This document shows positions 2,879-64,000 of a stretch of DNA of 64,000 bases, piece after piece (positions within the stretch are counted from its first letter, which is position 1; every line of letters starts with the position of its first letter). Under the pieces are notes generated by a model that saw only the letters and a list, made by a program, of their open reading frames with translations, was not told where the DNA came from and searched no databases. Source of the stretch: an uncultured bacterium (lineage in GTDB: Bacteria > Cyanobacteriota > Vampirovibrionia > Gastranaerophilales > Gastranaerophilaceae); NCBI GenBank assembly GCA_902779645.1, contig CACZCH010000011.1, forward strand, positions 7,587 to 71,586, in the 5' to 3' direction. The position numbers and the translations under genes are program-made.

Positions 2879-3051
2879 AGTAATACTCCTTAAACACTAT
2901 AAGCGTTTTATCCTTTTTTTTACTAATCAACTAATAAGACCAATGTTATACTTATATTATCGGCATATTTTTGTTAAACTTTAGCAATTTTTTGGAATTT
3001 GTTACAAAATTTTACATAAAAATTCCAAAGCAAACACTTTTTCTCAAAAAA

Positions 3052-5223
3052 CTATCCTTCAAAGTTACCTGCAAGTGTTCTTAAAGCTTTATTTTCTGCT
3101 CTATCAGCTCTGTTTAAAGCCGATTGCAGTCCTGAATTATCCCAAGTTTTTGAGATATTAGCCGCTCTTTGTGATGGTATATATGAACGTTTATTTGAAT
3201 TTTTTTCTGTATTTTGTTGTATTACGGAATTCTGCGACGGTATATATTGATAGCTGTCACGCTTACCTTTAGCATTTGATTTGATAACATTCTGCTGGTT
3301 AGGAACATAGGTATAATTATCTATTTTTTGCTGTAAATAGCTATTAAATTGAGCATTCTGAACATTTTGCGGTTGCGCTCCGTGATGTGCAATACCGTTT
3401 GCCTGAGAATTACTTTGCTGTGTTTGAACCGCTTTAGTTTGAGCTTCATTCTTTTTTCTCTGAGCTTCATACAATCTTTCAGTCAAATCTTCTTTCAAAA
3501 ACTTCTTTTGTTCTTTCTTTGCATCTTTAATCTCTTCTTCTTTCATAGAATCATAAGATTCACCGAAGATAAGTTTTATACACTTATTCAAAGCAGTATC
3601 GAGAACGCCCATGGTAAGCAAACCAAAAACAATTAACCTTGCGGGAACACCGAACAGGTTGCGCGGAAGATTTCTCATTTGAGAAAATTTAGTTGTTAAC
3701 CAATTACCTGTGTTATAAGCATCAACTCTGCCTAAATCAGGAGTGAGCCAGCCTGCAACTTTTCTTATTGCTCTTGTGTACCACTTTTGACCTTTTACTT
3801 CGCTATGCTTCTTTATGAAATTATTTACTTTATTTCTTTCCTCCAGCCAAGATTTATAATTTTTAAATCCTTCGCCTTCAATGCCGTTTTTCTTATTTTT
3901 ATCATTAATTTCTTTTAATTTATCTCTTATAGCCTGAATATCTGTATCTTTCATGCCTGCATATTTAGCACCGCCTATATGATGCATAATTTGTAATGCA
4001 AACGGGAATGTAAATACCCAAGAGATATGGTTAACAAGGTTGCTTACACCTGTGCCGACTTTTTGATTTGGTTCGGCTTTATGTACATTAATTGCTGTTT
4101 CAACAAATGCAGGTGCAATAAATAAAAGTACACCAAGCTTGCCTCCGCCAAAGGTCAAACCTCTGTGAACCATTTGCATAAAGCGTGACATAAATCTGCC
4201 AGTTGCAGTCTTTGCTCCTTCTTTTGTTAAACTGAATAACCTGTTAAATACACTGTCACAGCCAACTATACGTTTTGTCGGAGCTGTAAGAGGACCAATA
4301 TCAATTCCGAAAGGCTTGAATTCACCCATACCGACTCGAACTTTACTTCCGACTTTTCTGCAAGCCTCCTGAACTTCATTAATAATTTGAGTATTTCCAA
4401 TAGTATCTTTATGTACAGATTTAAGCCATTCAATATCTTTATTTCCAAAAGCTTTTAATACTTCTTTTTTAGTTCTTGCAACCCCTCCGTCTTCGGCTAG
4501 AATTATATTTTTGATTTCATCTTCTTTAAGACCGAGCCTTCTTAACTGAATATAACTTGATGCCTTTTCTTCTGAACTTAAAATATTCTTTAAGCTATTT
4601 AATTTATTCTTTTCTTCATTATCAAGTGCAAGTTTGTTAAGTTTAGCAAAGCCCTTGTCGTCTTCTAAGTGCAGTTCTTTTGTAATAAGGCTGAAGTCAT
4701 GCAAGATTCTTTGTCTTTGAGGTAGCATTTCTGACTTAACCAGTTCCATTTCAGGGTTTGTAGGAGTTTTCCATATAGCTTTTAAAACAGAGTTCTTTTC
4801 AATAAAACTTCCGCCTTTTTTGCCTGCAGATTTAAACCAGCCTAAAACCTTCTGCATGGGTTTTGATTGAACAAAATCTGAGTTTTCAATTTTATCACCA
4901 AAGTTTGTAACTTTTTTCAAAAGGCTCTTATCGTACTCTCCTCCGCATGAGGCAGTGTATTTATCGAGCAGCCAGCCGCACCCGAACCAAGTGAGAATAG
5001 AAGCTATCGGATGATCAATCAACGGTCCGAAGAAACCTTTTATTACCATTGAATACATTGGAGTTTCCTCGAGCATTTCTTTTATGCTTTTTCTTTCGCG
5101 AGGCTGATAATATTCAGGAATTCGAACAGCTTGAGCCTGGGGACGCAATGTAGTATTTGCGTTCCTTGGCGGAACACCATATCCGTTATTTCGATTATCA
5201 AAATTTTGAATACTTTGAGTCAC
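3052..5223 (-). CDS. Hypothetical multi-pass membrane protein with Q/N-rich C-terminus
   Basis: 723-aa ORF, several hydrophobic segments (ILTWFGCGWLL; LGVLLFIAPAF; WVFTFPFAL; LIVFGLLTMG), low-complexity tail. Confidence 0.75.
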   Translation of the reverse strand: MTQSIQNFDNRNNGYGVPPRNANTTLRPQAQAVRIPEYYQPRERKSIKEMLEETPMYSMVIKGFFGPLIDHPIASILTWFGCGWLLDKYTASCGGEYDKSLLKKVTNFGDKIENSDFVQSKPMQKVLGWFKSAGKKGGSFIEKNSVLKAIWKTPTNPEMELVKSEMLPQRQRILHDFSLITKELHLEDDKGFAKLNKLALDNEEKNKLNSLKNILSSEEKASSYIQLRRLGLKEDEIKNIILAEDGGVARTKKEVLKAFGNKDIEWLKSVHKDTIGNTQIINEVQEACRKVGSKVRVGMGEFKPFGIDIGPLTAPTKRIVGCDSVFNRLFSLTKEGAKTATGRFMSRFMQMVHRGLTFGGGKLGVLLFIAPAFVETAINVHKAEPNQKVGTGVSNLVNHISWVFTFPFALQIMHHIGGAKYAGMKDTDIQAIRDKLKEINDKNKKNGIEGEGFKNYKSWLEERNKVNNFIKKHSEVKGQKWYTRAIRKVAGWLTPDLGRVDAYNTGNWLTTKFSQMRNLPRNLFGVPARLIVFGLLTMGVLDTALNKCIKLIFGESYDSMKEEEIKDAKKEQKKFLKEDLTERLYEAQRKKNEAQTKAVQTQQSNSQANGIAHHGAQPQNVQNAQFNSYLQQKIDNYTYVPNQQNVIKSNAKGKRDSYQYIPSQNSVIQQNTEKNSNKRSYIPSQRAANISKTWDNSGLQSALNRADRAENKALRTLAGNFEG

Positions 5224-5362
5224 GATACAATAAACCTTTATAAACCTAACTATAAATATAAAGTCAATTTCTTCTCAAAAATTGCTTAAAAATCATGATT
5301 TGAAGGTTGTTTTGTAATAATTCTTAATATTTTTGTAATAAAAATAAATGACGATTTATTAA

Positions 5363-6580
5363 TTATTCTTCAACATCATCAAGCATTTTAACAAGTTTGT
5401 TTAATGAATTTTCGGTTGAATCTTTATTCAATAAAACAGATTGAACGGTCATGTTTACAGCATTATTTATATCTTTTTGATTCCTTCTCTGTTTCATTTG
5501 GGGGTAAATATTATTAACTTGCTTTGCACTGATTGAGCGAGCTTTCGATGCCATATCGGAATAATCGTTATAAAAACTGTTATTAAGAGCTGATGCATTA
5601 GTAGATATAATATTTGTCATTTTAGCAAGCTCAAGCTGGTTTTTAGCATTTGTTAAATACAAACAAAATTCTAATGCTTCTTTTTTCATTTTTGCTCTCT
5701 TAGGAATAACAAAATTCATAACAGAAACATCATTTTGACCAACAGGACCTTTAAATTGTTCCATAACATCTGTTTGTTCATAAACAGACGGTGCATTTTC
5801 TTTAATCATATTTAAGAAATTTGCTCCGCCCTGATAAAAAACAATTTTACCTGCCATATATTGTTCGAGAGCTTCTCTGTGTGTCATTGTGATTGATTCA
5901 GGCGGGATTAAATCTTTTTGATACAAGTTTTTAAACATATCAAAAACATTGATTGATGATTCGGAATTTAAATCGGAAAGTTCACTAACTCCGTATTTAT
6001 TAAGAATTTTCATCATCGTATCATTTTCTGTAATTGTGGGAAGATATGCATAAGCACCGGTGTTAGTCTTTATTTTTTCAGATATTGATGCTAATTCTTT
6101 ATAGGTTTTTGGAAGTCTGATTATGCCGGATTTGGCAAATAAATCTTTGTTATAAATTGTAATAGCACTTGTTGCGTACCAAGGAATTGAATACAATTTT
6201 TCTTTATACATCAGCGCTTTAATTATCTCAGGATTATAATCTTTAACAGCCTCGGGGTTTATTTCTTCAAGCGTACCTTTTTGAGCAAGAAGTGCCGAAA
6301 AATCCGGATTGAGATTGATTAAATCCGGCGGATTATCTGTCATAACAGCTGCAAGAGTTCTTTTTTCACCTTCGGAAAAAGGTACATCAACCCATTTTAT
6401 GTGCAAGTTAGGATGAGATTTTTCGTACTCTCGTATAACTTTGTACATATAATCAGAAAAATCACCCATTTGAAGTGTCCAAACAGTAATTTCTTTTAGG
6501 CTGTTTTCCTGTCTGATTGAACAGGCTGTTAGGCCTATAATTAAGATTGTAATAAGTACTAAAGTAAAAAATTTTTTCAT
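5363..6580 (-). CDS. ABC transporter extracellular solute-binding lipoprotein (sugar-binding family)
   Basis: Lipobox LTAC; PPDLI, LYSIPWY, IYNKDLF motifs typical of SBP_bac_1/8. Confidence 0.88.
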   Translation of the reverse strand: MKKFFTLVLITILIIGLTACSIRQENSLKEITVWTLQMGDFSDYMYKVIREYEKSHPNLHIKWVDVPFSEGEKRTLAAVMTDNPPDLINLNPDFSALLAQKGTLEEINPEAVKDYNPEIIKALMYKEKLYSIPWYATSAITIYNKDLFAKSGIIRLPKTYKELASISEKIKTNTGAYAYLPTITENDTMMKILNKYGVSELSDLNSESSINVFDMFKNLYQKDLIPPESITMTHREALEQYMAGKIVFYQGGANFLNMIKENAPSVYEQTDVMEQFKGPVGQNDVSVMNFVIPKRAKMKKEALEFCLYLTNAKNQLELAKMTNIISTNASALNNSFYNDYSDMASKARSISAKQVNNIYPQMKQRRNQKDINNAVNMTVQSVLLNKDSTENSLNKLVKMLDDVEE

Positions 6581-7165: not shown

Positions 7166-10100
7166 ATGGGAGAGAATATGTTACAAGAAGCTACAAGAGC
7201 GATTAATTCCGCATTTAATAACAGTTTTATAAAAAAACTCAGTCAATATTTGCACGACTGTGTAAGAGAAGAAGTTAAAAGTTCAACTTTCAGAAACCTT
7301 AAAGCCGATAAGGATAACAAGTGGATTTTCTTAAACGAAGAAGATACACTATTTACGCAAGGACTTGATTATTTGAAACTTGAAGGTTCAGATCCTAAAA
7401 TTACAGAACTTATGATTCAAGCCGATACAAGCCAAAAAGATAAATATTTGATATACGGGTATTTGTTTTTGACAGGCAAATCTAAATCAGGCAGAAAAAA
7501 TGAGTTTTTGACTCCGCTTCTTTATGCACCTTGCCACTTGGAAAGAAATGGCGTAAATATTAATTGCATGCTGACTGACGAATTCATTTCTCTAAACACA
7601 GGAGCTCTTACAGCTTTAATGAAAAAATCAGACGACGAAGACGAAACAGAATCACTTCTTGAAGGACTCTTGGATGTTGTACCATCTGTTCCGATTACAC
7701 AAGAAAAATTGGACATATTTTTGACCACTCTAAAATCAATAGTCCCTGATATAGATATCTCGCTTAATGCAGGCGGTAAGGTTGAAGAAGATAATATTAC
7801 AAAAGATTTCTACAATGAAAAAATTGATTCTCAAAATATTGACGAAATTATAGAAGAGGAAGAAAATTCAGCTAAAAAAGCGATAAAACTGGACAAGATA
7901 AACATTACAAATCAGTGTGCAATAATTCTTACAAAACGTCCTTCAGCTACCGCGGGTGTTTTGCATGAATTAACCCAGATTGCTGAAAAACCAAGCGGAG
8001 TATACAGAGAAACTGTTTTAAATATTATAAATGAAGAATATACTCAATCTAAGCCTGTTGATTCTCAGCAGAAAACATTGGAAAACTTTTACCCTGTGAC
8101 ACCTTTGTCACTATCTGATGCTCAGCTGAATGTAATAAAAAATGTCGAGAATTCAAGATTAGTTTCAGTTTTCGGCCCTCCGGGGACAGGTAAATCTCAA
8201 ACAATAGTAAACCTTGCCGCACACTTAATTTCTAACGGAAAAACCGTACTTATTGCATCTCGTATGGATAAAGCGGTTGATGTTGTTGCGGAAAGACTTA
8301 ATGAACTTGGCGCACCGTTTTTGGCACTAAGAGCGGGAAGATTGAATTACCAAAGAGAGCTTTCTATGCAATTGCAAGACTTGCTCGCAGAAAAAATCGA
8401 TCTCAATGAAGGTATGGAAAATTCTATGGTTTGCGATACTTCCGATATGGAAGAACTTTTAAAAACTATTTCCGATATGGAAAAGAAATCAGAAAAGATT
8501 ATTAAGCTTGAAGAAGAATGGACTGGGGTAAATGAAAGAATTAAGCTGGAAGAACCTCAACACCAAAATCATTTCTTCATAAAAAGAATTCTTAAAGGAG
8601 ACGAGATTCAAATTATTGAATCAACTATCAATTCTCTTTCTGTAAACCAAGAAAAATCAGGTTTTTGGGCAGGAATAAAAAATCATTCTTCACTTAATAA
8701 TCTTAAGAAAATTTTGAATATCAAAAACTTTGATGTTAATAACGAAAACCTTTCTATTCTTCAAACAGAACTTGAATTTGCAAAACTTGTTTATGAAGGA
8801 AGAAAAATCGAAACAGAAATCCAAAAAATCGGTAATATCCACGTATTATCAGAACAAATCAGAACCCTAAAACGCAAACAGAAAAAGCTTGCAATAGATA
8901 TTCTTAGAAATAAGCGCAGAGAAGCATTAAAAGGTTTAATGCAAGATCCTGTTAAGCGTCAAAGACTTTTTGTCCACTCAAAATCACTGACAGAGAGAAA
9001 GAAAAATCTCCAAAGCAGACTTCTTGAGCAAGAGGACTTTAAACCGCTTCTTGAAGCTTTCCCATGCTGGTGTGTCACAACTTACGCAGCATCAGGCTCG
9101 CTTCCGCTAAAGCCGGGGTTGTTTGATGTTGCAATTATTGATGAAGCTTCTCAATGCGATATAGCAAGCTGTTTTCCAATTCTTTTTAGGGCAAAACGTG
9201 CAGTAGTAGTAGGTGACGATAAGCAATTACCGCATTTATCATTCTTAGAAAAAGCAAAAGAACAGTCGTTTATGTCACAATACGGAATCGGTGACAGATA
9301 TCAGCTCATGTGGAGATTTAGGACAAATTCTATGTTTGACCTTGCAAATTATTATTCTATGCATCCGGTTCTTTTGGATGAACACTTCAGAAGCTTACCT
9401 CCGATTATAAACTATTCAAACAAAGAATTTTACGGCGGAAGAATAAAAGTAATGCGCAGAAACGACAATTCTAAAAAGGTTCTTGAAACTGTTGTAGTTC
9501 CTGACGGCAAAGTCGATTTTGATGCAACAAGAAACCTTCCTGAAATAGAAGCTCTTGTGAAACGACTCCACGAAATAGTAGTTGAAGATGAAAGAAAGGG
9601 GGTAAATGAAGGAAATCCTCCTGTTTCAATCGGTATAATATCACCGTTCAGAGCTCAAGTTGAACAATTAAAGATTTCAGTTTCAAAAGTTTTATCCGAA
9701 CATATGATGGAAAAGCATCAAATTGAAATTGGTACAGCACACACATTTCAAGGTGACGAAAGAGATATAATTCTTATATCTTGGGCTTATGCAAATAACA
9801 GTTACCCGCAAAGCTTAATATTCCTGCAAAAACCAAACCTGTTTAACGTAGCAATTACGCGTGCACGCTATCAGATGATTAATTTTATATCAAAAGACCC
9901 GAGAGAACTTCCGGAAGGGCTTTTGAGAAGTTATTTGGGATTCTGTTCCGAATATGAAAATAAATACGCACTTGCTCAGTCTGATGAATTTGATGAAAAT
10001 ATTTATAAAAACTCGTTTGAAAAAGAAGTAGCAGAAGCTTTTCGTGCGCTGGACCACAAAGTTACCTGCGGAGTAGATATTGCAGGACTTAGCGCAGACT

Positions 10101-34016: not shown

Positions 34017-34145
34017 AATATTCTCCTGTTAAATAAATAATTTATATTATATAACAAAACTTAGTTCTAACAAAATAATTGACTACAAACTATGTCCATG
34101 ATAAATTGTATTTGCGGTTTAGGCTGTTTGAAAATTAAATAACTT

Positions 34146-34215
34146 GGGTGCGTGGCGCAGTTGGTAGCGCAGTTGACTCTTAATCTCAGGTTTTACAGGG
34201 TTCAAATGCACACCA
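34146..34215 (+). tRNA. tRNA-Lys(CTT), 5' half intact and 3' half degenerate; probable att site / pseudo-tRNA
   Basis: GGGTGCG-TG-GCGC-AGTTGGTA-GCGC-A-GTTGA-CTCTTAA-TC is canonical; downstream the anticodon and T stems no longer pair, only GGTTCAAAT and GCACACCA remain. Confidence 0.75.
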
Positions 34216-34467
34216 CATAAGGATTACAACCAACTTTAACACATTTTTGAAAATAGGGCTGAAACCCTTGATTTTTCGTTGTATTATGTTCAACCGTTAC
34301 ACAATTATTACACAAAAATTTTTAGGAATTTTTTAACATAATTGCAAAAAAATAATGGAAAAAATAGAAAGATTTTTAACTTTGGCAGATAAAAAAATTG
34401 GGTAATAAAAACTTTATTTTTTACTTTTACTTAATACTACATATAAAGAGAAAGTTGTAAAACTTCA

Positions 34468-34791: not shown

Positions 34792-37700
34792 TTATTCTAC
34801 TTCCATAACATTGTCAGTCCAAAGTTCACATTGTTTCATTACTGTTTCAACTGCACCTTGTTCTTCTTCTGGAGGGTAATTATATTTTTTAAGCAGTCTT
34901 TTTACCATCATCATCATTTTTGCTCTTGCAAACTGCTTATTCTGCCAGTCAACAGTTTTATTTCTTCGCAAAGTATCTGTTAATTCTTTCGTCATTGCAA
35001 CAAGTTCTTCATTCTTATAAAAATCTTTTACTGCTTGAGGTCTTGTTAAAGCATCATAGAAAGCAATCTCTTCGTTGTTAAGTCCTAATTCTTCACCTTC
35101 TTTTTGAGCTTCTGAGATTTGTTTAGCAATTTTCATTAACTCTTCAATAACTTCTGCGTTTGTGATTAGCCCGTTTATGTACTTATTCATTATTGCCTGA
35201 ATAATTTCACTAAATTTTTCACTCTTAACAAGGTTTGTTCTTTTGTATATAGAAACCTGTTCAGCAAGAAGTTTTTTCAAGATTTCAACTGCTATATTTT
35301 TCTCTTTCATTTTGGAAATTTCTTCCAAGAATTTAGGATCAAACAGAGAGAACTGTTCTTTTACATCCGAGAACAAATTAATTACACCATCACTCTTAAT
35401 ACTTTGCCTTAAAAGTTCATTGATTCTTTCATTCATTTCTTTTAATGAGATTTTCTTATTACTACCTGAGTTTAAATCTCTCATTACTAAAACTCTTATT
35501 GCTTCAAAGAATGCAGCTTCAATTCTATCATCTTCATCTACTATTGAGGAACAAAGAGATAAAGCTTGGTGTAACATCAACGCTTCTTTTAGGAATGTTT
35601 CTTTTTTATCTTTATAATTTGGTGCGATAATAAAGTTTATGGCTTCTTTTATTGCTCTTGATCTATCTAAATCAGAGCCTGTTTTGAATTTTGAATAATC
35701 GTGTCCGTGGAATAAATCCTGACAAACTGATAATTTTTCTTTGAATTTTGGATAAGCTTGTGTTGAAATATCAGGATTGCCGTAATTGTTTCTATCTCTT
35801 ACTGTGTAATCATTCATTGCTTGTTTTAGAGCAGTTGCTATTCCAACATAATCAACTACCAAACCGCCTTCTTTATCTGCATAAACTCTATTAACTCTTG
35901 CTATTGCCTGCATCAAGTTATGTCCTGCCATTGGTTTATATACATACATTGTAGCAAGAGAAGGAACGTCAAATCCTGTAAGCCACATGTCAACAACAAT
36001 GGCAATTTTTAGCGGACTATCTGCCTTTTTAAATTTGTTAGCAAGTTCTTCTTTATGTTTTTTGTTTCCGATAATTTCACGCCATTCTTCAGGGTCATCA
36101 TTCCCAGAAGTCATTACCACTGCAACTTTTTCTTTTCCTTTTTCGTTCCAATTTGGGCGAAGTTCTAATATCTTATGATAAATCTTTAATGCTATTGTTC
36201 TAGAGTAAGCAACAATCATCGCCTTGCCTGTTAGCAAATGTTCTCTGTTTTCTTCATAGTGCTTGATAATATCATTTACTAATGAATTTATTACATCATC
36301 ATCACCCAAAATTGTTTCCATTTGTCCAAGTTGTTTTTTGCTTTTTTCAACAACTTCAGGGTCAGCATTAAGAGCCATTAGGTCGTATTCTTTATCAATA
36401 AGTGCTAAGGTGTTTTGGTCAAGATTCAGCTTAACAACTCTGCTTTCGTAATATACAGGACGAGTTGCCCCATCTTCAACCGCTTGTGTCATATCGTAAA
36501 CATCAATGTATTCCCCAAAAACTTCTCTTGTGTTTTTATCTTTTTGAGAGATTGGAGTACCTGTAAAACCTATAAAAGTTGCATTAGGTAAACTATTTCT
36601 GATTACTCTTGCTGTGCCGATTTTGATTTTACCAGTTTTTGCATCGACTTTTTCAGTTAATCCGTATTGTCCCCTGTGTGCCTCATCAGCCATAACGATA
36701 ATGTTTCTTCGTTCTGTTAGCGGTTCTTCGGATTCTTCAAACTTTTGCATTGTGGTAAAGATTATGCCGTTTGCCTCTCTGCCGTCCAATAATTCTTTTA
36801 AGTTTTCTCTGCTTTCAGCCTGAACTGGTGTTTGACGGAGAAAGTCCTTGCATTTAGAAAATTGACTGTATAATTGATTATCTAAATCATTTCTATCAGT
36901 CAAAACAACTATTGTAGGACTGTTTAAGGCTTCTTGTAAGAGGTGAGCATAGAATACCATTGATAAAGATTTTCCACTTCCTTGAGTGTGCCAGAAAACA
37001 CCGCCTTTTCCGTCAGTTTCGGTTGCGTGTTTAGTTGATTCAATAGCTTTTCTTACTGCAAAATATTGGTGATAAGCAGCAAGTATTTTTATTCTGTCTA
37101 TGCCGTCTGAGGAAAAACAGATAAAGTTTTTAATAATATCAAGTAATCTCTCTTTCGGGAAAATTCCTTCAAAGAATGTTTCAAAATCTGCAATTTTAAT
37201 GGATTCAGACTTGCCGTCTTTAGTTTTCCATTCCATAAAACGTGACTCGTCAGAAGTAATTGTTCCAGCACAGCTTTTGATTAAATCACTCATAACACAT
37301 ATTGCGTTATAGGTAAACATTGTGGGAATCTCATGCATATAATTTCTGATTTGTCTGTATGCTTCACTTGCATCGGTTTCTTCTCTTGAGGGAGATTTTA
37401 GCTCCATTAAAACAACAGGAATTCCGTTTAAGAAAATTAGAATATCAGGACGTTTTTCGGAATTTTCGATGAAAGTCCATTGGTTAGCGATAATGAATGA
37501 GTTGTTGTTAATGTTTTTGTAATCTACAAGGTAGATAATTGTAGAACGGCTTTCCCCGTTTTCTAAATAAGTTGCGGTGATACCGTTTTGCAAGTAATCC
37601 ATAAATACGGTGTTTTGTTGTGGAATATCACTATTTTCAATATGTTTAAGCTTAAATATGGCATCTTCAATAGCTTCTTGCGGAGCTTTTGGGTTAATTC

Positions 37701-37848
37701 TATTGATAGAATCAAGCAAAATGTCTTCATACAGAGGGCTGTAATAATCATGTTCGACATCATAACCGCAAATGTGGTCATACCCCATTTTTTCAAAAAG
37801 TTCTATTATCGAATTTTCATAACTTTGTTCTGTATAAAGACTTTGCAT
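34792..37848 (-). CDS. hsdR: Type I restriction endonuclease subunit R
   Basis: RPDILIFLNGIP..LMELK, WHTQGSGKS, DEAHR, GFTGTP, VVDMWLTGFD, QAIARVNR; C-terminal DUF3387-like. Confidence 0.96.
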   Translation of the reverse strand: MQSLYTEQSYENSIIELFEKMGYDHICGYDVEHDYYSPLYEDILLDSINRINPKAPQEAIEDAIFKLKHIENSDIPQQNTVFMDYLQNGITATYLENGESRSTIIYLVDYKNINNNSFIIANQWTFIENSEKRPDILIFLNGIPVVLMELKSPSREETDASEAYRQIRNYMHEIPTMFTYNAICVMSDLIKSCAGTITSDESRFMEWKTKDGKSESIKIADFETFFEGIFPKERLLDIIKNFICFSSDGIDRIKILAAYHQYFAVRKAIESTKHATETDGKGGVFWHTQGSGKSLSMVFYAHLLQEALNSPTIVVLTDRNDLDNQLYSQFSKCKDFLRQTPVQAESRENLKELLDGREANGIIFTTMQKFEESEEPLTERRNIIVMADEAHRGQYGLTEKVDAKTGKIKIGTARVIRNSLPNATFIGFTGTPISQKDKNTREVFGEYIDVYDMTQAVEDGATRPVYYESRVVKLNLDQNTLALIDKEYDLMALNADPEVVEKSKKQLGQMETILGDDDVINSLVNDIIKHYEENREHLLTGKAMIVAYSRTIALKIYHKILELRPNWNEKGKEKVAVVMTSGNDDPEEWREIIGNKKHKEELANKFKKADSPLKIAIVVDMWLTGFDVPSLATMYVYKPMAGHNLMQAIARVNRVYADKEGGLVVDYVGIATALKQAMNDYTVRDRNNYGNPDISTQAYPKFKEKLSVCQDLFHGHDYSKFKTGSDLDRSRAIKEAINFIIAPNYKDKKETFLKEALMLHQALSLCSSIVDEDDRIEAAFFEAIRVLVMRDLNSGSNKKISLKEMNERINELLRQSIKSDGVINLFSDVKEQFSLFDPKFLEEISKMKEKNIAVEILKKLLAEQVSIYKRTNLVKSEKFSEIIQAIMNKYINGLITNAEVIEELMKIAKQISEAQKEGEELGLNNEEIAFYDALTRPQAVKDFYKNEELVAMTKELTDTLRRNKTVDWQNKQFARAKMMMMVKRLLKKYNYPPEEEQGAVETVMKQCELWTDNVMEVE

Positions 37849-46754: not shown

Positions 46755-46912
46755 TTTTAACTCCTTAGATAAAATCCCTGGATTTATTCTAGCATGAAAT
46801 AAGCTTATATTGTAGGATTTGTTTAAGCATTAAATAAAAGCAAAACTTGCATTTTGAATTGTTTTAAAAATTTAGTACTAAATAAGCAGTTTAGGCTTGG
46901 GGGATTTTGGTG

Positions 46913-47263
46913 CTAACATTTTTTCTGACTTAGGATTTTCATCTTACAAAGTATAGAACTAAGTTCAGGGGTTGAGTTGGATTTTAATGTTTGTATAGCG
47001 GAGATCTCGGAGTCGGTAAATTCTACTATCTCCTTCATAGAATAGTTTATAAATCCCCAGCGTTTGATTTTTGAGCCTTCATTAACTACATCAACCTGCG
47101 GAAATGCATCTCTTATTGCTGATATCATTCTTTGAGCTGTGCGGACGCAAACGTTAAATTCTACACAAATATCTTTAATACAGATACCTCTTGGTTCTGC
47201 AAGTAACATATGCAATAATTGCATGAAATCGGTCATTCTTGAATATCTAATAGTATCACTCAT
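46913..47263 (-). CDS. Winged HTH protein resembling the N-terminus of WYL-family regulators, WYL domain absent
   Basis: I.DIC.EF.V..RT.QR.I..I HTH_11/DeoR-like; 116 aa. Confidence 0.65.
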   Translation of the reverse strand: MSDTIRYSRMTDFMQLLHMLLAEPRGICIKDICVEFNVCVRTAQRMISAIRDAFPQVDVVNEGSKIKRWGFINYSMKEIVEFTDSEISAIQTLKSNSTPELSSILCKMKILSQKKC

Positions 47264-47270
47264 TTTTCAC

Positions 47271-47897
47271 CTATAAATTCTCTTTATACATTTTTACTAA
47301 TTTATAGAAAGAAGTTGGCTTTAGTTTTAGTTCTGCCATAGCTTTTCTTGCTGTAATCAAACCATTTTGCCATACTTCATAAATATTTTTCCAATCCTCA
47401 GGATATTTTATCTTTGGTCTGCCTAAGTGTTTACCTTTTTCTTTTGCAATCTTAATTCCTTCTGCTTGTCTTTGTTTGATAAAAGCTCTTTCCTGTTCTG
47501 CTACATAACTCAACAGTTGCAAGACGATATCAGAAATTACTTCGCCGATAAGCCCATCTGTCTTTGTAGTATCAAGGATTGGCATATCAATTACTCTAAT
47601 GTGAGCTTTTATGTCTTTTACTATCTCACGCCATTCTTCACAAATTTGTTTGTAGTTTCTGCCAAGACGGTCAATAGACTTGATTACAAGGATATCTCCT
47701 TCTCTAAGTTGAACCTTTAGAGCTTGATACTGCGGACGGTCAAAATTTTTACCTGAGCACTTATCAACAAAAATATCTCTTTCGTTAATTCCCATATCCA
47801 ACATAGCTTCAAGCTGTCTGTCTTCGTTTTGATCGGTCGTGGATACTCTACAGTATCCAAAAGTTTTTATGTTCGTATTAGCCAAGATTGTCTCCAT
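47271..47897 (-). CDS. Serine recombinase (resolvase/invertase family)
   Basis: GYCRVST.DQN..RQ, SGK...RP, V.SIDRLGRN, R.RQ.EGI..AK..G...GRP, C-terminal HTH. Confidence 0.95.
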   Translation of the reverse strand: METILANTNIKTFGYCRVSTTDQNEDRQLEAMLDMGINERDIFVDKCSGKNFDRPQYQALKVQLREGDILVIKSIDRLGRNYKQICEEWREIVKDIKAHIRVIDMPILDTTKTDGLIGEVISDIVLQLLSYVAEQERAFIKQRQAEGIKIAKEKGKHLGRPKIKYPEDWKNIYEVWQNGLITARKAMAELKLKPTSFYKLVKMYKENL

Positions 47898-48120
47898 ACT
47901 TGAGTTTTAGTCTTTTTATTGCTTACTGTCTTGACACTCTCGCATTAAACGGATATCGCTCACGCTTTCATCCTCTGCTCGAGTGTCGCTCTCAAGTATA
48001 ACGCGCTATTCGTAAAACTCAAGTCTCTTTGTGAACATTCGCAAAATTTTGTAGCAAAACTTTACGAACAGTTTTGGGGGTAAAAATTTAATGTTCTTAA
48101 AGGTACGCTTTTACGAAGAA
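47896..48120. promoter_or_regulatory. Resolvase promoter / putative res site
   Basis: Repeated TTCG(T/C)AAAA and TTTACGAA half-sites; TTGAGT-16-TATACT on the minus strand; three ACTCAAG motifs. Confidence 0.55.
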
Positions 48121-48169
48121 TGATTTGCGGATTTTCTTTAGATTTTTTAATTAAAATAAAGGAGGGCTT

Positions 48170-48397
48170 ATGGAATTAGAATTAATCTATGCTGAAATTC
48201 AGTATGAAAATGCACGATATGACATGGAGTTACACCGATTGGATTTTTGTAAACTAAAAGAAAAATTCCAACACGTACAGAAACTCCAAAAACTTGAACA
48301 GCGGAAGAAAGAGATACTAAAAGAGCAGCTATCCAAATCTGATAAATTATTTTCCTATAAGCCTTTAGAAATTAGTGATTGTAAATGTAATAGGTAA
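48170..48397 (+). CDS. Small coiled-coil hypothetical protein
   Basis: 75 aa, AAGGAGG SD. Confidence 0.65.
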   Translation: MELELIYAEIQYENARYDMELHRLDFCKLKEKFQHVQKLQKLEQRKKEILKEQLSKSDKLFSYKPLEISDCKCNR

Positions 48398-51300
48398 TTA
48401 TCTCAAACGATACATTTCTATTTCAGCTTGTTCTCCTTCTCCTACAACATGCCTGTCTGCATCGTAATCAACATAAACTTCTTGTTCACCCGAGTTTCCG
48501 ATAATCTCCATTGTGTGCGTAGATTTATCGTAAATATCCATGTTCAGCTTATGTCTATTTGGTCCAGCGAAGATTGGTAAATCTGGTTGTCCTATTTCGG
48601 CACAGAGCTTTTTAGCATAATCGACAAATGTATCTCTAATCTTATCGTTGTTTTGATATTTAGTTTTTAGCTCAATATTATCAAGGACAAGAGCTGGTTT
48701 ACCATCAACGTATGCGAGATATATCATTGTATTGCCAACAAAGCTGCCTTTATCAGTAAGTTCTATTGCACCGATACACTTATTCATTATGTATGTAGGA
48801 GCAGACCATTCGTTGAAGTTTCTACCTAAAGCCGTACAACATTGAGCATCGTTACCCAAACCCAATGCTTTCTTTATATCATACATATCGGTTTTTCTAA
48901 CTTCAATTTCTGCCGTTTCACCATCTTTAATACTTGAAGCGTTATCGACTTCTTGTGTTCTCATTTTAATAAGGTGAGTGTACATAGTACCTCTTGCATT
49001 ATCAATTTGAGGGTCATAGTGTTTTTTCGTCCAAAAATCGTTACTTATAACTTCTTTCTTGATTAACGAAACTATATCGTCCATATCTTCAAAAATGATT
49101 GGTTTACCATTTTTATATAAACGATAGTATTCTGTAGAGCCAGCACTAAAGCCATCACCTTCCCAATTATCTTTTTGAGATTTTTCAAACGTAACACCAA
49201 GTTGTTCTTTCAAGTGTTTAAAGATGGGTTCGGTAACCTCTTTGGGTAAAGATTGGAAAAGAGCATCATTCAAGTCTTCTTCTAAGTTATGAATAGCTGC
49301 TTGTTTAGCTTCTTCTGCGTTAAGTTCAATTTCTACTGTTGTATAAGAGTTTTTATCAACCTTAGTAAACTTTTCATAATCAAAACCAAGTTCTTCAAAT
49401 ATGCGTTTTGTTTCTACGTTTTGTGGCATTTGGTCGATTGCTTGTTCAATCGTTAGATTTTGATTATCTCTTACGATTTCAACAAGAGTTTTCATGTTAT
49501 CAAAGAATTCATCACTTGATATGAATAATTTTGATATGTATTTACAATGTATCAAATCTAATTTTTGAGATAGAGCTTCATCATACTCAACACCGAGTTT
49601 CTGATAAATCTTTTTGTTTACAGCCTCATTCCAAATAGCATCATTCTCTGGAGTAGAAGGTTTAATCATATTAATAAAATCTGTTATTTCTTCTTCTGTA
49701 GAGATTTCTGCTAATGCTGAAAGCACACGAAGTTTTGTAACAACTTCTTGTGGTTCAAGACCAGAGTTTTGAAGTAAAAATTCTTTTAATTCTTTCTGCT
49801 TGTTACTTATGTCTTTCATTATTTCTTTTACTTGAGCAGCATTTTCACCTTGATAGTATATAGACTGAGCTTGACTACCAAGAGTTTTTGATTGTTTTTG
49901 AAGTTCTTTTACTTGTTGTTTTACTTCTGGTGTTTCAGCGTTTTCTCCCTGTTTTAATTGCTTAATCTGCTCATCGATTTGAGCCTTTTGAGCTTGCAAC
50001 TCTTTTATACGAGCCAGATTATCAGCTCCGACTACTTCATTGAGCTTTTTCTTTAGTCCTGTAATCTCATTATTAAGTTCTTGGTATCTTTGGCTTGATT
50101 GAGGATTTATTTTTTGTCGTAACAGTTCTTTGTTACCTTCGGATAGAAGTTGTCTATCAAGATTTGCTACTTCTATCATAAATTCTCCAAACTCTTCTAA
50201 CATAAGAGGAAATGCTGCTTCGGTGTTGCCTAAACCAATCAAATCTATCGTGTAAACTGCATCACGTCTGGTCGTAGTGCCTTCAATTTCACCATCTGTA
50301 ATATCTTCAAGTCCAGATTTTAACAAATCTTTGTTCGCAAGTGCATCTTGAATTAATTGTTTATGCAATTCTAAGATATTATCATTTTTTGCCCTTGCAT
50401 ATGATTCTATCATTTCGATACGATTTATTGCTGGTATAGATTTTACATCTTCGTTATTCAGTAATCCACGTTTTATAATATTATCCCAGCAATCAGCAGA
50501 ATAATTAACTAAGTCTGGGTATTTATCAAGTAATCCCTCTTTTAAAGCATTTATAATAGTATCTTCATAACCTATTTTTAGATTTGATATAAGTCGCTTT
50601 ATAAGCAAAGGTGGACAATTTAGTGAGGTATCTGTACATAGTCTTATAGCAAATTTAGCTTTATCTTTATTGCTAGACTCATATTGGCTACTATTATCGT
50701 CTTCTCCTATTTCAAATCCATCTAACCATGAATTTTCATCAGATTTTATAGCTTGTAAAACGTCTGAAATTAGATATTTAGGGAATTTATCATTAGTAAT
50801 TAACACTTTTGCAAGTTCTATATTATTATCATTTATATAGTCAATTACATTCATTACAACATCAAACTCTGTTTCTTGATGGGGGTTTAGTTTGTGTTCT
50901 ATGTAACCCATTATTTTAGTCTTAACATTTGTTCCGTCTAAAGTAGATAGGAAGCTTCTATTGTTTGATAAAGACGATAAAATATTATTATCTATCAAGA
51001 ATTGAGCAAATTCTATTTTTGTATTTCGAGCTTTTCTTGAATTCATACTATTTGTAATTTTATTTAAAAGAGTTTGAAATCTTGAACTGTCTATTCTTTT
51101 ATTTTTATTTTTTAAGTAGAACAGAATACTTGAAGGGTCAATATATGGATTAGAATTTTCGCAAGCGAATTCTACTATTTTAGAAAAATCAATAGGACTT
51201 TTTTCATCTATCTCTTTTAGCTTATTAATAGCAATAACTGCTTGTTCACTCAAATCATATTCTATATCTAAATCTATTCCTTGGCTTTTAGCTTTTTCTT

Positions 51301-60162: not shown

Positions 60163-60504
60163 ATGGATATTTTGGATAGGTTAGCAAGGTCAAATTTTAG
60201 GAGTAGGTTTAAGCTACGTACTAAAGAAATTGAATATATAAAGGATAAAGGTATAGAGAAGATAGAATCTCATGCAAGAGATTTTATCAGAGATAGAATT
60301 GCTCCTGCGGAACCAGTTAATGATGGAAAGCAAACTCCAATGCGAGGACACCCTGTATTTATCGCTCAACACGCAACTGCAACATGTTGTCGTGGGTGTA
60401 TAGAAAAATGGCACAAGTTTCCTAAAGGGAAACAACTTTCTGAAGAACAACAAGAATATCTTGTGAATGTAATTATGGAGTGGATAAGCAAACAAATGAT
60501 TTAA
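60163..60504 (+). CDS. DUF4186 family protein
   Basis: L..S.FRSRF.L, NDGKQTPMRGHPVFIAQHATATCCRGC. Confidence 0.9.
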   Translation: MDILDRLARSNFRSRFKLRTKEIEYIKDKGIEKIESHARDFIRDRIAPAEPVNDGKQTPMRGHPVFIAQHATATCCRGCIEKWHKFPKGKQLSEEQQEYLVNVIMEWISKQMI

Positions 60505-60510
60505 AGATTT

Positions 60511-60690
60511 TTATTACTTTATTACTTTTTATTACTAAATTATTACTTCTTGAAAATAAGTAAATACAGATATTTTAGATATATTTATCTTAAAAAGTAA
60601 TTTTATAATATTTAAATACTTAAAATATGTTTTTTAAGTAAAAAAAATAAATGATTAAATAGTAGGATTACAAAATTACCAAAAATATAA
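60511..60690. repeat. AT-rich region with TATTACT direct repeats and opposed AAGTAA copies; candidate replication origin
   Basis: TATTACT at ~60512, 60520, 60530, 60541; AAGTAA at ~60558, 60595, 60636; lies downstream of the helicase gene. Confidence 0.45.
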
Positions 60691-60691
60691 A

Positions 60692-60729
60692 ACCACCTCT
60701 GAAGTAGTAATAATGACAATAGAGGTGGT
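60692..60729 (-). terminator. Hairpin, probable terminator of the replication operon
   Basis: ACCACCTCT ... AGAGGTGGT 9-bp stem followed by a T-rich run on the minus strand. Confidence 0.5.
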
Positions 60730-60755
60730 AATATAGGTATAATTAAGGTTTACAC

Positions 60756-62648
60756 TTAAAAAGGATTGTTAGGATCAATTTCCTTTTTAGGTGGTTCTTC
60801 CTCCGTTAAATCAGAATATTCACTTAATCCAGTAACATTAAAGCATATAGAATAGGCTTTTTTTCCACAGTAATCTACTGCTTTATAATCTCTGTTTCGA
60901 GGATGATTTTTGGCATAACGAGTAAACTGGTCATCATCAATCTGTTTTGACCTATCGTAAGCCAAGTATTTGTTAATGATTGAGAGCACAACTCCCTTTT
61001 TGAAACAGACCCAAGTTTCTCCTAAAAATTCCGATTTTGTCTGAGTTTGAATTTTGAAATGTTCTCCTTCTACTATCTGACCGACATCAGATAAAGTTTG
61101 GATTAAAATCAACACTCTGTCTACAACATTTTTGGTTTCAGAATACTCATCTCCTTGTTTCTGAACATATTTAACAAATTGCTCTTGCAAGCCCTCAACA
61201 TTCATACCTGCAATTTTCAACAACAATAGAGTCCCCGTATAAGCATATGCCAAATTGTTTATGATTCTGCCCTCTTTGAGTGTTGTTCTATCTTTGATTA
61301 GCGTAGTTATCTCATTGTAAATTTTCAGAACTTCATCAAATGGAATTTTCAACAATTCGGGTAAAATTAAAGACAATTCCTTTAACTTCTGGCCGCTGCT
61401 TACGTGGTATTTGAACTTTTCCGCAACAAAGCTCTTACCAAAGATTTGAACAACATTAAGCCTATTAAGAACTTCCTGAAGGTTGGGGAGGCTTTCATTT
61501 GTTGAATATATAACAGGCGAACAGGTCTGAATATATTCAATGGCTTTTCTGTATGCTTTCATTACAGTTCTCGGGCTTGCAGAATACAACTCTTTGGCAA
61601 GAGAAGTAAAATTACTTGCCGTAAGCGTTGTACCTTTCACATCATCAACGCAGATAGCAACACCATTGTAATTAGCACTTAGATATTCATTGCTTTTGGC
61701 TGTAGAGCCGCCTGATATCAAAAAGTTTTCAGAAAAACCAAAAAAGGATATTCCTAAATACTGCAAAGTAGATTTACCCGAAGCAGTATTACCATATATT
61801 ATCATAGTAGGTACCCCGATTTTCTTTGCAAATTTTTCAAAGAAAATCGACATTATCATATGTCCTAAAGTAAACAACGGCAACAGTATGTTCTGATTCC
61901 AACATTCCATGAGATTCTCAATTAACTCATGTGCAACTTCTTGTCCTGATTTTTCGCTCTTTAAAAGCATAGGAACGCATTTATTGCTTTCAGCAAGCTT
62001 AATAAACTTTCCTGATTCAACTTCAATATACCCTTCAGAATTTGTCCAAACTACACCCAAAGGCGTAGCAAGGGCATTCCCGTATAAGAAAGTTCCCTCC
62101 GCAATAATACCTGCATTTTCGTATATTGTTACTTTTGAAGTTACTTTTTGTGCAATCATTTCAGAGAAAAAACATTTGAACACATCGTCTTTCATATTAA
62201 TAAAAAATTCATGACAACTGTTACTAATCGATTCCTGAAACTTCTTTGCATCCGATTTTGATATTCCTGCAACCTTGATATTGCTCTCTATTTTATTTTG
62301 AGCATTCTGCAAAGTTAGCAGGTAATACTTTATCGGCTGCATATTGCTTTTGTTATTGAATACATGAGTGCATTCCTTGACTTCTTTAACAAAAAAATCT
62401 GCAACCACGGATACTTTTATCTTCTCTTTCAATACACTAATCATATATGTTTGGTTATGTGCACAAAAGAAAAATTTTTTTCTATAAGGCATTTGATATT
62501 CTTCGGCTGAAAAAGAAATATCCATAGAGTCCATCAAAGTGAGATTATTTATGCGATTGCTAAAAGTCTCTAATACTTCACTAATATCCTTTTTCCCAAG
62601 GTCAGTAGGTGATTTAACCATTGGTATTAATTTATCTTCTTCCATCAC
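60756..62648 (-). CDS. Superfamily 3 helicase / DUF927-like replication protein
   Basis: Walker A GNTASGKST, Walker B ICVDD, motif C STN; coupled to Prim-Pol. Confidence 0.75.
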   Translation of the reverse strand: MMEEDKLIPMVKSPTDLGKKDISEVLETFSNRINNLTLMDSMDISFSAEEYQMPYRKKFFFCAHNQTYMISVLKEKIKVSVVADFFVKEVKECTHVFNNKSNMQPIKYYLLTLQNAQNKIESNIKVAGISKSDAKKFQESISNSCHEFFINMKDDVFKCFFSEMIAQKVTSKVTIYENAGIIAEGTFLYGNALATPLGVVWTNSEGYIEVESGKFIKLAESNKCVPMLLKSEKSGQEVAHELIENLMECWNQNILLPLFTLGHMIMSIFFEKFAKKIGVPTMIIYGNTASGKSTLQYLGISFFGFSENFLISGGSTAKSNEYLSANYNGVAICVDDVKGTTLTASNFTSLAKELYSASPRTVMKAYRKAIEYIQTCSPVIYSTNESLPNLQEVLNRLNVVQIFGKSFVAEKFKYHVSSGQKLKELSLILPELLKIPFDEVLKIYNEITTLIKDRTTLKEGRIINNLAYAYTGTLLLLKIAGMNVEGLQEQFVKYVQKQGDEYSETKNVVDRVLILIQTLSDVGQIVEGEHFKIQTQTKSEFLGETWVCFKKGVVLSIINKYLAYDRSKQIDDDQFTRYAKNHPRNRDYKAVDYCGKKAYSICFNVTGLSEYSDLTEEEPPKKEIDPNNPF

Positions 62649-63509
62649 CTATTTTCCTCCTTTCATAAATTGACATTTACAACATATATGAGGAAAACAT
62701 CCTGATATAAAGGTACAACTATGTCCTCGTCCGAATTTCCTTGCATTATCAATTTTCTTTTGTGTTTCCAGAAAACTATATTTCTCATATGGTTGTGAAA
62801 GCTCATGAATCAACTCATCTGAATCCTCAATAGTTGCCAAAACTGATACCATTGAAAACCACTCTGGTTCGCTTAACGTTACCGCATTATCTCTACAATG
62901 AGCAAGAAATGCACAGTTTTTAAACATAGCATTAATGTTGATATTTTTATATTTTTTAGGTGGTGCAGAAAAGCATTCATTTTTATATTTTGCCTGTCTG
63001 TTATACAAACCTTTATTTATATAATTGACCCAAGGTTCGGGCAATTCAGCAATTACAAAGTTTCCATTGTTATTTATACCATTAATAATTTCATATCGCC
63101 TGCCGTTTATAATGGATGGTGCAAACATTATGTAAGCGTTATAACGGATGTCAACATTTTTCGTTAATTTTCCCTTGGGTTCAATAATACCTTTATCGGA
63201 AAAAATTAAGTGATAGCCATTTCCTGTTGCTGACGATTGAGTCAATGTATCAGGCAACGGGCAATTTAACTCTTCTTGTAATGCCAATAATTCTTCTGCT
63301 GCTTTGGAATCAGGATTGTGATAATCAAGATCAAATGCAATCACGCCTGATTTTGCACAACCAACTGCAATGTTGTAGCCTTTCTTAATTAATCCTTCTA
63401 CATCTACATTGAAACGAGCATCATTCAACCCGTGCTTTGTTGCAGGAATTTTAGAATTACTAACACAAGCAACAACAGCAAAGTTTTTTAAATTTTTATA
63501 TAAATCCAT
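62649..63509 (-). CDS. Bifunctional DNA primase/polymerase (Prim-Pol) with Cys-rich C-terminal domain
   Basis: K.P...HG..DA, YNIAV, AFDLDYH, GNGYHLIF, VDIR.....M.APS..NG..Y; C-terminal CAFL.HC...EPEW...C...C. Confidence 0.88.
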   Translation of the reverse strand: MDLYKNLKNFAVVACVSNSKIPATKHGLNDARFNVDVEGLIKKGYNIAVGCAKSGVIAFDLDYHNPDSKAAEELLALQEELNCPLPDTLTQSSATGNGYHLIFSDKGIIEPKGKLTKNVDIRYNAYIMFAPSIINGRRYEIINGINNNGNFVIAELPEPWVNYINKGLYNRQAKYKNECFSAPPKKYKNININAMFKNCAFLAHCRDNAVTLSEPEWFSMVSVLATIEDSDELIHELSQPYEKYSFLETQKKIDNARKFGRGHSCTFISGCFPHICCKCQFMKGGK

Positions 63510-63782
63510 TTTTTGTCTCCTTTCTCTTTAAACGGATTTGTCTACAATCTTTACTAAAAACAAAAAAACAAGCCCTAAAGCTTTGTTTTGACTGTTTTAG
63601 AACTTGTTTTTTCTATTATTATCTTTTATATACTTGTTTTTTTGCGTGTTGTTTACTTGTTAGAACTCGTTAGAACTTGATTTTCAACAGCTTATTCTGA
63701 CTTAATGCTTGATTTTGTTTTAATTTGACCCTAATCACTCATGTCTACCACCCCCCTTGATTTATTTCCCTTATATTTCTAT

Positions 63783-63936
63783 TATACTTTAGTTTTTCTT
63801 TGAACTTAATTTTTAAACTAAAGTTTAAGAGATTCATGCTCTACTTTTATTATACTTTAGTTTCACCGAATCGAAAAAAGCGATTGACTTTTTATAACTG
63901 CGCGATACACTTGAGTCGCTAAAACTCAAGTATATC
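63783..63936. promoter_or_regulatory. Divergent control region with TATACTT(G/T)AGTTT motifs and a 13-bp inverted-repeat operator
   Basis: GATACACTTGAGT-cgctaaa-ACTCAAGTATATC at 63904-63936 overlaps + strand TTGACT-16-TACACT; SD GAGGTGG at ~63990. Confidence 0.65.
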
Positions 63937-64000
63937 AACAAAAAAGGCCAATGAAATTTTATGTCAGTTTATTACATAAAAAAATCTAAGAGGTGGTATT

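Follow-up and report, generated by a model that had tools for sequence, protein, structure and literature searches.

A repeated operator-like box in the control regions of a mobile defence island from a gut melainabacterium, and a short winged-helix protein as its candidate binder

Phage satellites and integrative elements can be silenced by a master repressor of the type represented by Stl of the Staphylococcus aureus pathogenicity islands (SaPIs), and in restriction-modification (R-M) systems an Xre-type helix-turn-helix (HTH) controller (C) protein binds a C-box, with the consensus GACT-N3-AGTC, upstream of the C/R genes. Defence islands are repressed or otherwise controlled by BrxR, which recognises inverted repeats of 11 bp, separated by a spacer of 5 bp and situated between its -10 element and its gene, a single repeat being sufficient (PMC9122601), and DriD binds ATACGAC-N7-GTCGTAT as a dimer (PMC10853764). 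Here we describe a repeated sequence in a 64,000-nucleotide stretch of DNA (the window; contig CACZCH010000011.1, positions 7,587 to 71,586 of the forward strand, with all positions below counted from its first letter) that carries a mobile defence island of ~31 kb (34145 to ~65398, its right end lying past the window) of a gut melainabacterium with a Gastranaerophilales host. Nine copies of this sequence, which we call boxes, overlap or directly adjoin the -10 hexamers and starts of promoter-like sites for the integrase gene (int), the Prim-Pol gene (prim-pol; two sites), the operon of a resolvase, a winged-HTH (wHTH) protein and a type I R-M system, and the operon of a 57-aa open reading frame (ORF) and an AAA ATPase. 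The boxes are probably operators for a protein and, more tentatively, operators of a single island-encoded one, for which a 116-aa wHTH protein (46913..47263, minus strand) is the most likely candidate.

Identical copies of the 15-mer CTAAAACTCAAGTAT occur at 47896-47910 (minus strand) and 63919-63933 (plus strand), where 0.01 would be expected at up to one mismatch, and identical copies of the 13-mer CTCAAGTATAACG at 47991-48003 and 58622-58634 (0.07 expected). The pattern TATACTTKAGTTTT has five matches at up to one mismatch, against 0.28 expected and a count to which none of 100 shuffles gets, and is joined at up to two mismatches by minus-strand copies at 48014 and 63814; a repeat search adds an inverted repeat of 13 nt at 63904-63916 and 63924-63936, with 12 of 13 positions paired around a 7-nt gap. 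Once put in register, the nine boxes share the 8-mer core ACTTKAGT and the consensus (T)A(T/C)ACTT(G/T)AGT(TTT), and every one of them is a pseudo-palindrome of the form AnACT-TK-AGTnT. The core is found 13 times in the window, where 5.5 would be expected and none of 100 shuffles reaches 13, and eight of these matches fall within three intergenic stretches that contain four control regions and make up ~1.1-1.15 kb, or 1.8% of the window (~0.1 expected there). A weight matrix derived from the boxes, into which box 3 had been entered 2 nt out of register (its self-score is only -3.8), reaches a score of at least 14 at eight places in the island, at none in ~40 kb of host DNA (window plus extension) and at about six in ~430 kb of related loci. 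An earlier note on this DNA had presented the motif as an island-wide operator, and had named its being equally common in host intergenic DNA as the finding that would count against it; every position that it quoted is right on re-check, the motif is borne out as a non-random box specific to the island, and because the motif is uncommon in the available host intergenic DNA, that objection is answered as far as the data allow.

The int gene, read on the plus strand from 63961 to ~64980 past the window end, starts with an ATG (MSVYYIKKSKRWYYSF...) and encodes a tyrosine integrase of 339 aa (PF00589); the earlier note had it begin just past the window, while its start most likely lies inside, at ATG 63961. 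A simple promoter scan yields TTGACT-16-TACACT at 63884-63911 (plus strand), with the -10 hexamer TACACT inside box 9 (63905..63918, plus strand; ATACACTTGAGTCG). Box 8 (63921..63934, minus strand; TATACTTGAGTTTT) lies inverted 7 bp past box 9, spans the expected start of int transcription, and pairs with box 9 as the dyad ACTTGAGT-N7-ACTCAAGT at 63909-63931. In the related element L034 the int promoter reads TTGACT-17-TATACT, with both -35 and -10 kept.

On the minus strand, a small serine recombinase of resolvase/invertase type (208 aa; 47271..47897), referred to here as the resolvase, is preceded by the promoter-like site TTGAGT-16-TATACT (48022-47995), whose -35 derives from box 2 (48014..48027, minus strand; GAGACTTGAGTTTT) and whose -10 derives from box 3 (47990..48003, minus strand; GTTATACTTGAGA). 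Box 1 (47895..47908, plus strand; CATACTTGAGTTTT, or AAAACTCAAGTATG on the resolvase strand) is inverted, forms a 12-nt perfect inverted repeat with box 2, adjoins the resolvase ribosome-binding site, and abuts or overlaps the start of the gene. That start is itself ambiguous (47883-47897): the called ATG at 47897 lies inside box 1 and has no Shine-Dalgarno sequence, and GGAG, with a 6-nt spacing, stands before an alternative TTG at 47885-47883. In box 4 (58618..58631, minus strand; TATACTTGAGTTGT), inspection by eye picks out TATACT as a candidate -10, located 25-30 nt upstream of the 57-aa ORF, and the link of the AAA operon to the other control regions depends on this one box alone.

Boxes 5 (63783..63796, plus strand; TATACTTTAGTTTT) and 7 (63851..63864, plus strand; TATACTTTAGTTTC) read AAACTAAAGTATAAT on the minus strand, each with a perfect TATAAT: that of box 5 (AAAACTAAAGTATAAT) faces a mini-ORF, a set of iterons and prim-pol, and that of box 7 provides a second -10 facing prim-pol. 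Box 6 (63814..63827, minus strand; TAAACTTTAGTTTA) is the inverted partner of both, and the 8-mers in this region are spaced by 23-29 bp. The order of AGTATAATA, Shine-Dalgarno sequence, 3-codon ORF, iterons and prim-pol is conserved in the related elements L032, L034 and L036, and in L032 the prim-pol promoter lies just within the element boundary with no gene on its opposite side, an arrangement which implies that the TATAAT promoters point at prim-pol and that the box stands upstream of the -10. The mini-ORF is M-S-D-stop at 63731-63742 (minus strand), with a strong Shine-Dalgarno sequence, GGGGGGTGG, and the combination of a Shine-Dalgarno sequence with M-[S/N]-x-stop recurs in L032, L034 and L036; the iterons, three copies of TTAGAACT at 63597-63681 (minus strand), lie between the promoter and prim-pol. 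The proposal that copies of the motif overlap the -35 and -10 boxes of the resolvase promoter and of the plus-strand gene is thus upheld, and it extends to the prim-pol -10 hexamers and to the candidate -10 of the AAA operon.

Alternatively, the boxes might have no dedicated regulator and be a shared promoter core (a TATACT or TATAAT -10 with its flanks) that spread within the island by duplication or convergence and serves the RNA polymerase of the host. A -10-like nAnACT is present in every box, the best promoter-like hexamers coincide with five of them, each has a gene downstream in the direction of its TATACT, GCGCG(A/T)TAYACTTGAG is common to the int and resolvase promoters, and the boxes are conserved no more than their flanks. 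However, the invariant ACTT.AGT positions differ from those of a sigma-70 -10, and the window's host intergenic DNA is without such a box. Placement is also not uniform: at int, resolvase and the AAA operon the box holds the -10 and runs downstream from it, but at the prim-pol promoters it lies upstream of TATAAT. Moreover, no promoter is called for at the positions of boxes 1 (at the resolvase ribosome-binding site), 6 (between promoters) and 8 (past the int start), and these three have no promoter role. The variable placement and these three boxes make an operator the better fit, and we regard the promoter core as an unlikely explanation.

If the boxes are operators, the protein encoded just downstream of the resolvase is the strongest candidate to bind them. 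Its Pfam matches (HTH_11 and HTH_23) are weak, the PADLOC WYL model matches it through its N-terminal portion (positions 7-92) at E 6.5e-5, and a profile of its family retrieves 8tp8 (DriD) and 9pfq (a WYL protein) from the PDB over residues 3-62 at E 3e-11. An AlphaFold (AF2) model consists of a winged HTH and two helices (pLDDT 72), and its best Foldseek match is again DriD. The N-terminal wHTH is accordingly homologous to those of the WYL regulators BrxR, CapW, DriD and PafBC. The rest of their architecture is missing: the chain ends at residue 116 with no Pfam match to the WYL (Sm-like SH3) ligand-sensing domain, and the model, comprising only the wHTH and two helices, leaves no C-terminal WCX dimerisation domain. 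A profile search of 1.8 billion representatives returned 176 relatives at E<=1e-10, aligned over query positions 1-116 and falling into short (~115-130 aa) and long (310-350 aa) forms; the ~115-aa proteins are full-length at that size as a family, and the long ones match within their own first ~110-120 residues. No relatives were found in viral contigs. Of 23 related genomic loci, 10 encode a full-length WYL regulator (wHTH, WYL and WCX) at a distance of 1.6-2 kb upstream of prim-pol, and the full-length relative in L012 (ORF 7954-9021, ~325 aa from the wHTH Met) extends far past the shared region, its C-terminal domains having been read by eye. The window protein is thus a short version, lacking the sensor, of the regulator usual in this family of elements. 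The earlier note's idea of one element-encoded regulator remains the most economical explanation, but its suggestion that this might be the next gene, with an HTH, LexA or WYL domain, fails, as that gene is the integrase; the regulator is instead more plausibly this WYL-family winged helix without a WYL domain. We also considered an R-M controller protein acting on a C-box and rejected it, as the 116-aa protein is a WYL-family winged HTH rather than an Xre-type one and the box is ACT-N2-AGT.

Related elements associate the wHTH protein with box-like sequences in several arrangements. L034, which sits in the same tRNA as the window island, and L035 encode a wHTH homologue after the helicase (77 aa in L034), and their boxes, two perfect and three degenerate, are all in the int/prim-pol region. 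L084 carries the resolvase and wHTH genes with boxes 1 and 3 intact: box 1 is kept at 14 of 14 positions, as it is kept in sheep-gut variants too, and GCGCGTTATACTTGAGA of the box 3 region is identical, with a related GCGCGTTATATTGAGAC recognisable in L085 and L086. In L085, L086 and L088 a 211-aa tyrosine recombinase precedes the wHTH gene, and three AAAACTCAT boxes lie within 120 bp upstream. L032 and L036 have neither the wHTH protein nor a box in the available DNA. The exact box is absent from distant prim-pol elements, some of which carry a repeat of their own, TGTCGCTAA(A/T), upstream of prim-pol; its likeness to GAGTCGCTAAAAC of the int operator may be coincidence. The pair of small recombinase and ~115-aa wHTH protein also forms a module of its own, which lies at 46913-48397 in the window and recurs in phage-like contigs beside R-M cassettes (L084 8942-10345; L085, L086 and L088 9354-10474). 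Its recombinase is of serine type in some contigs and of the 211-aa tyrosine type in others, a 70-75-aa ORF is divergent to the pair in the window, L084 and one NCBI contig, and a second tyrosine recombinase, of 187 aa, is often found on the far side of the cassette.

Several observations weigh against assigning the boxes to the 116-aa protein. L087 and L093 encode the wHTH protein yet have no such box. Compared with L034, at 82% identity overall, the boxes match at 14, 12, 9, 11 and 11 of 14 positions (box 5 at 14/14 and box 6 at 9/14), not above their flanks, and in neither of the two available homologous regions are boxes conserved beyond them. The inverted repeat at int is degenerate in L034, whose 77-aa wHTH homologue is 37% identical and may be defective, and the regions of L084 and L034 in which protein and box co-occur are homologous DNA rather than independent evidence. 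The AF2 model has moderate confidence only. Finally, a search for partners 12-18 bp from each box finds a full partner for boxes 8 and 9 alone, giving a DriD-like partner spacing for one of the nine boxes only.

Another protein might then bind the boxes: the serine recombinase through its C-terminal HTH, a Prim-Pol/DUF927 initiator for which the boxes would be iteron-like and autoregulatory, the 75-aa product encoded divergently from the recombinase, or a host factor. Resolvases of the Tn3 family autoregulate through sites before their own gene, and provide a precedent for the first of these. Int (87% identical), Prim-Pol and DUF927 are the best-conserved proteins between the window and L034, which keeps boxes, and the 70-75-aa ORF retains its divergent position at the recombinase-wHTH pair. 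Yet box-like sequences survive the exchange of a serine for a tyrosine recombinase and are present in L034 without a visible resolvase; L032, with a helicase 69% and a Prim-Pol 60% identical to those of the island, has no box; prim-pol already has separate iteron-like repeats, the three copies of TTAGAACT; and a host factor finds no box in ~40 kb of host DNA. We consider such a binder improbable and retain the 116-aa protein as the favoured candidate.

The spacing of the resolvase boxes is altered by a 63-nt hairpin module (47927..47989, minus strand) that is inserted between boxes 3 and 1 and is not part of the motif. The 63 nt are absent in sheep-gut variants, where the joint runs from 47926 to 47990 with one A between, and in L084, and without them the distance between boxes 3 and 1 is 22-23 bp, as it is between boxes 5 and 6. 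A 43-nt core (47939-47981), at a depth ~2- to 15-fold the local one, is shared by numerous further contigs from the same metagenomes, in which its flanks are unrelated. The core recurs in four other metagenome contigs (L089 589-625, L090 202-237, L091 6956-6992 and L092 1309-1345), in one of which it follows dnaJ. It is also present in the viral contig L049 (10870-10947), in the leader of a capsid-like gene; this is the only real one among 46 viral-contig matches to a 16-mer of the core, and a second hairpin pattern gave two chance matches only in viral contigs. As minus-strand RNA, the module is predicted to fold into a hairpin that contains a bulge and tandem G-A pairs and is capped by a GNRA loop, and the outer stem varies in sequence with its pairing kept in six copies. 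Rfam scans of the island, the resolvase leader and four other copies of the module returned no family. It could be a mobile hairpin like repetitive extragenic palindromes (REP) or miniature inverted-repeat transposable elements (MITE), or else a new structured RNA motif.

The leader also bears on whether the boxes act as RNA, either through pairing of inverted copies in leaders or with CUAAAACUCAAGUAU, near the ribosome-binding sites of resolvase and int, as the target of an antisense or trans-acting RNA. The minus strand from 48000 to 47880 is predicted to fold box 3 to box 1 in a 10-bp stem that closes around the hairpin module (-31.9 kcal/mol, z = -3.7), and the same 15-mer stands before both recombinase start codons. 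But if the -10 is TATACT or TACACT, each inverted repeat would have its upstream arm outside the transcript, and L084 keeps the arms though the module that they enclose is absent, and a role in RNA is accordingly very unlikely.

Nor do the boxes resemble crossover sites of the adjacent serine recombinase, whether for inversion between the 15-mers at 47896 and 63919 or for deletion between the direct 13-mers at 47991 and 58622. Like the res sites of resolvases and the hix and gix sites of invertases, the repeats are found right in front of a gene for a small serine recombinase and include identical inverted copies, the two 15-mers each being directly upstream of a recombinase gene; the recombinase is invertase-like (Mpi family, E 4e-11, below cut-off), and its relatives lie beside tail-fibre-like and R-M cassettes in phage-like contigs. 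The geometry differs, however: in res site I, hix and gix two ~12-bp half-sites flank a 2-bp crossover within 26-30 bp, whereas the sole dyad of the island is 13+7+13 bp and box 1 has no partner at the required spacing. Four bovine-gut runs gave contigs that are collinear with the window across all boxes, through 46800-48800 and 58300-64000. No joint was seen at any box in Logan contigs from eight metagenome runs over 46800-48800 and four over 58300-64000, a weak test in that contigs hide rare variants, and the sole recurrent joint in the metagenome contigs is the 63-nt indel. Because similar boxes accompany a tyrosine recombinase after the exchange, or no nearby recombinase at all, they are not the crossover sites of this recombinase, a possibility to which we give hardly any weight.

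The integrase can be set aside on other grounds. Contig L001, identical to window positions 52649-64000, runs 7.8 kb beyond the window and supplies the right end of the island. The left att repeat (34145..34185, plus strand) is a copy of the 5' 41 nt of tRNA-Lys(CTT), and the right one (65358-65398, past the window) is a 41-bp direct repeat formed by the 5' half of the intact tRNA-Lys(CTT) at 65359-65434, after int; the presence of this repeat at both ends sets the island limits given above. Arm sites of the lambda type are repeats on both arms at no more than ~200 bp from the att core, and boxes 5-9 are >1.4 kb from attR and all others far more distant from each att core. TTACACA pairs in tandem with an 11-bp step, found near both att ends at 34297/34308, 64996/65007 and 65309/65320 (the last two past the window), are probably the arm-type sites of the integrase; with these pairs flanking both ends and the boxes so far from att, the integrase is an unlikely binder of the boxes.

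Between its att repeats the island encodes, to the left of int, a replication module of Prim-Pol (62649..63509, minus strand) followed by a DUF927 helicase (60756-62648, minus strand). Just past the helicase terminator lie four copies of GTAATAA at a ~10-bp step (60511-60546), conserved in L034 (6425-6465), which may be an origin or partition site. A DUF4186 gene on the plus strand lies to the left of the helicase, and a flavin-reductase-like membrane protein is encoded between it and the operon of the 57-aa ORF and a 667-aa double-AAA ATPase (IetA-like; 56434..58594, minus strand). The double-AAA ATPase is followed by a DUF4143 ATPase (54984-56294; PADLOC PDC-S01), before whose gene TTCGTT(A/G)GAAAAAATG is repeated three times at a 33-bp step (56308-56390, minus strand), the middle copy filling the spacer of a perfect TTGACT-17-TATAAT promoter; this triplet is a second operator-like repeat, unrelated to the boxes. 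Further left are a 103-aa ORF (plus strand) and, divergent from it, a 2021-aa ORF (48398-54463, minus strand), and the region between them contains AAAATTGTTACA twice, the copies being 20 bp apart (54569-54600). The 2021-aa protein has a hydrophobic stretch at residues ~520-700 and a faint EF-hand match only, with no family in Pfam or PADLOC. We rejected the idea that it is an island RNA polymerase reading a special promoter, given its hydrophobic centre and lack of a family match, with nothing in support.

The 75-aa ORF (plus strand) is divergent from the serine recombinase and wHTH genes, with which a minus-strand string begins that runs to 34792 and comprises the serine recombinase, the 116-aa protein, hsdM, two unknowns, hsdS, an AbiTii-like gene, an FRG-domain protein and further ORFs; its last member, a 1018-aa ORF at 34792-37848, we take to be a putative hsdR. 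Beyond the tRNA, L001 carries at 2573-5912 a Mu-type transposase (PF09299), a TniB-like AAA protein and a third gene, a Tn7/Tn552-like unit adjoining the island. Relatives of the island Prim-Pol come from metagenome-assembled genomes of Gastranaerophilales/Melainabacteria from animal guts, the element is present in bovine gut metagenomes, two rumen runs contain the organism at 24-52x, and megablast returned no match to plasmid relatives.

Returning to the 116-aa protein as the binder, we envisage that a dimer would occupy ACTTGAGT-N7-ACTCAAGT at the int start site, and that the protein would also settle on single or wider-spaced boxes, 23-29 bp apart at prim-pol and, in relatives without the 63-nt insert, 22-23 bp apart in front of the resolvase. 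Occlusion of RNA polymerase would keep integration and excision, replication and part of the cargo low and coupled, and the protein would autoregulate its own operon. As it has no WYL sensor domain, its release would come about by dilution, proteolysis or a partner protein rather than through a bound ligand. A broader scheme, which is speculative and rather unlikely in its entirety, casts this WYL-less 'mini-BrxR' (wHTH plus linker) as sole master repressor of an integrative, satellite-like defence island whose hosts are non-photosynthetic cyanobacteria, coupling the int, replication and defence-cargo promoters via one box. The same protein would travel in gut phages as a cassette behind swappable serine or tyrosine recombinases near R-M genes, and the mobile 63-nt hairpin, inserted precisely between two boxes, may modulate the resolvase/R-M leader. 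A repeated operator in the control regions of a mobile element is ordinary by itself. However, should the 116-aa protein prove to bind the boxes, the WYL family would gain a minimal member that has no sensor and joins integration, replication and anti-phage cargo in one regulon, and this would offer a handle on the silencing and switching-on of defence islands in Melainabacteria, a gut lineage without genetics.

Among described systems, the island resembles those under Stl-type repressors in that one repressor would silence int and replication from a divergent region beside int, and in its combination of int, primase/helicase and cargo within a tRNA gene. It differs in that the candidate is encoded ~16 kb from the int/prim-pol control region and belongs to another fold family, and in that no packaging or interference genes were identified on the island and no helper phage is known. 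In both sequence and fold the wHTH is best matched by DriD of Caulobacter crescentus (PDB 8TP8/8TPK; PMC10853764), whose operator, ATACGAC-N7-GTCGTAT, shares with ACTTGAGT-N7-ACTCAAGT a 7-bp gap, a likeness of geometry alone, as the half-site sequences are unrelated. DriD is, however, a 327-aa activator of DNA-damage genes that is itself activated by single-stranded DNA, whereas the island protein is presumed to repress, from the position of boxes on -10 and start regions. There is also a parallel with BrxR and CapW (PMC9122601). These differ from the island protein, which at 116 aa stops after a helical linker with no WYL or WCX domain and whose binding is here only predicted; its gene follows a small recombinase, and its boxes are also found on the integrase and replication promoters. 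Yet the N-terminal winged HTH is homologous, the gene is followed directly by a defence system (in the island, type I R-M with embedded Abi-like genes), an inverted-repeat operator stands at or just after the -10, and there are further sites with one good half-site, comparable to the second BrxR site, R-BOX2. On this reading the box system is a variant of the control that BrxR-type regulators are known to exert on defence islands, and takes in the promoters of int and replication as well.

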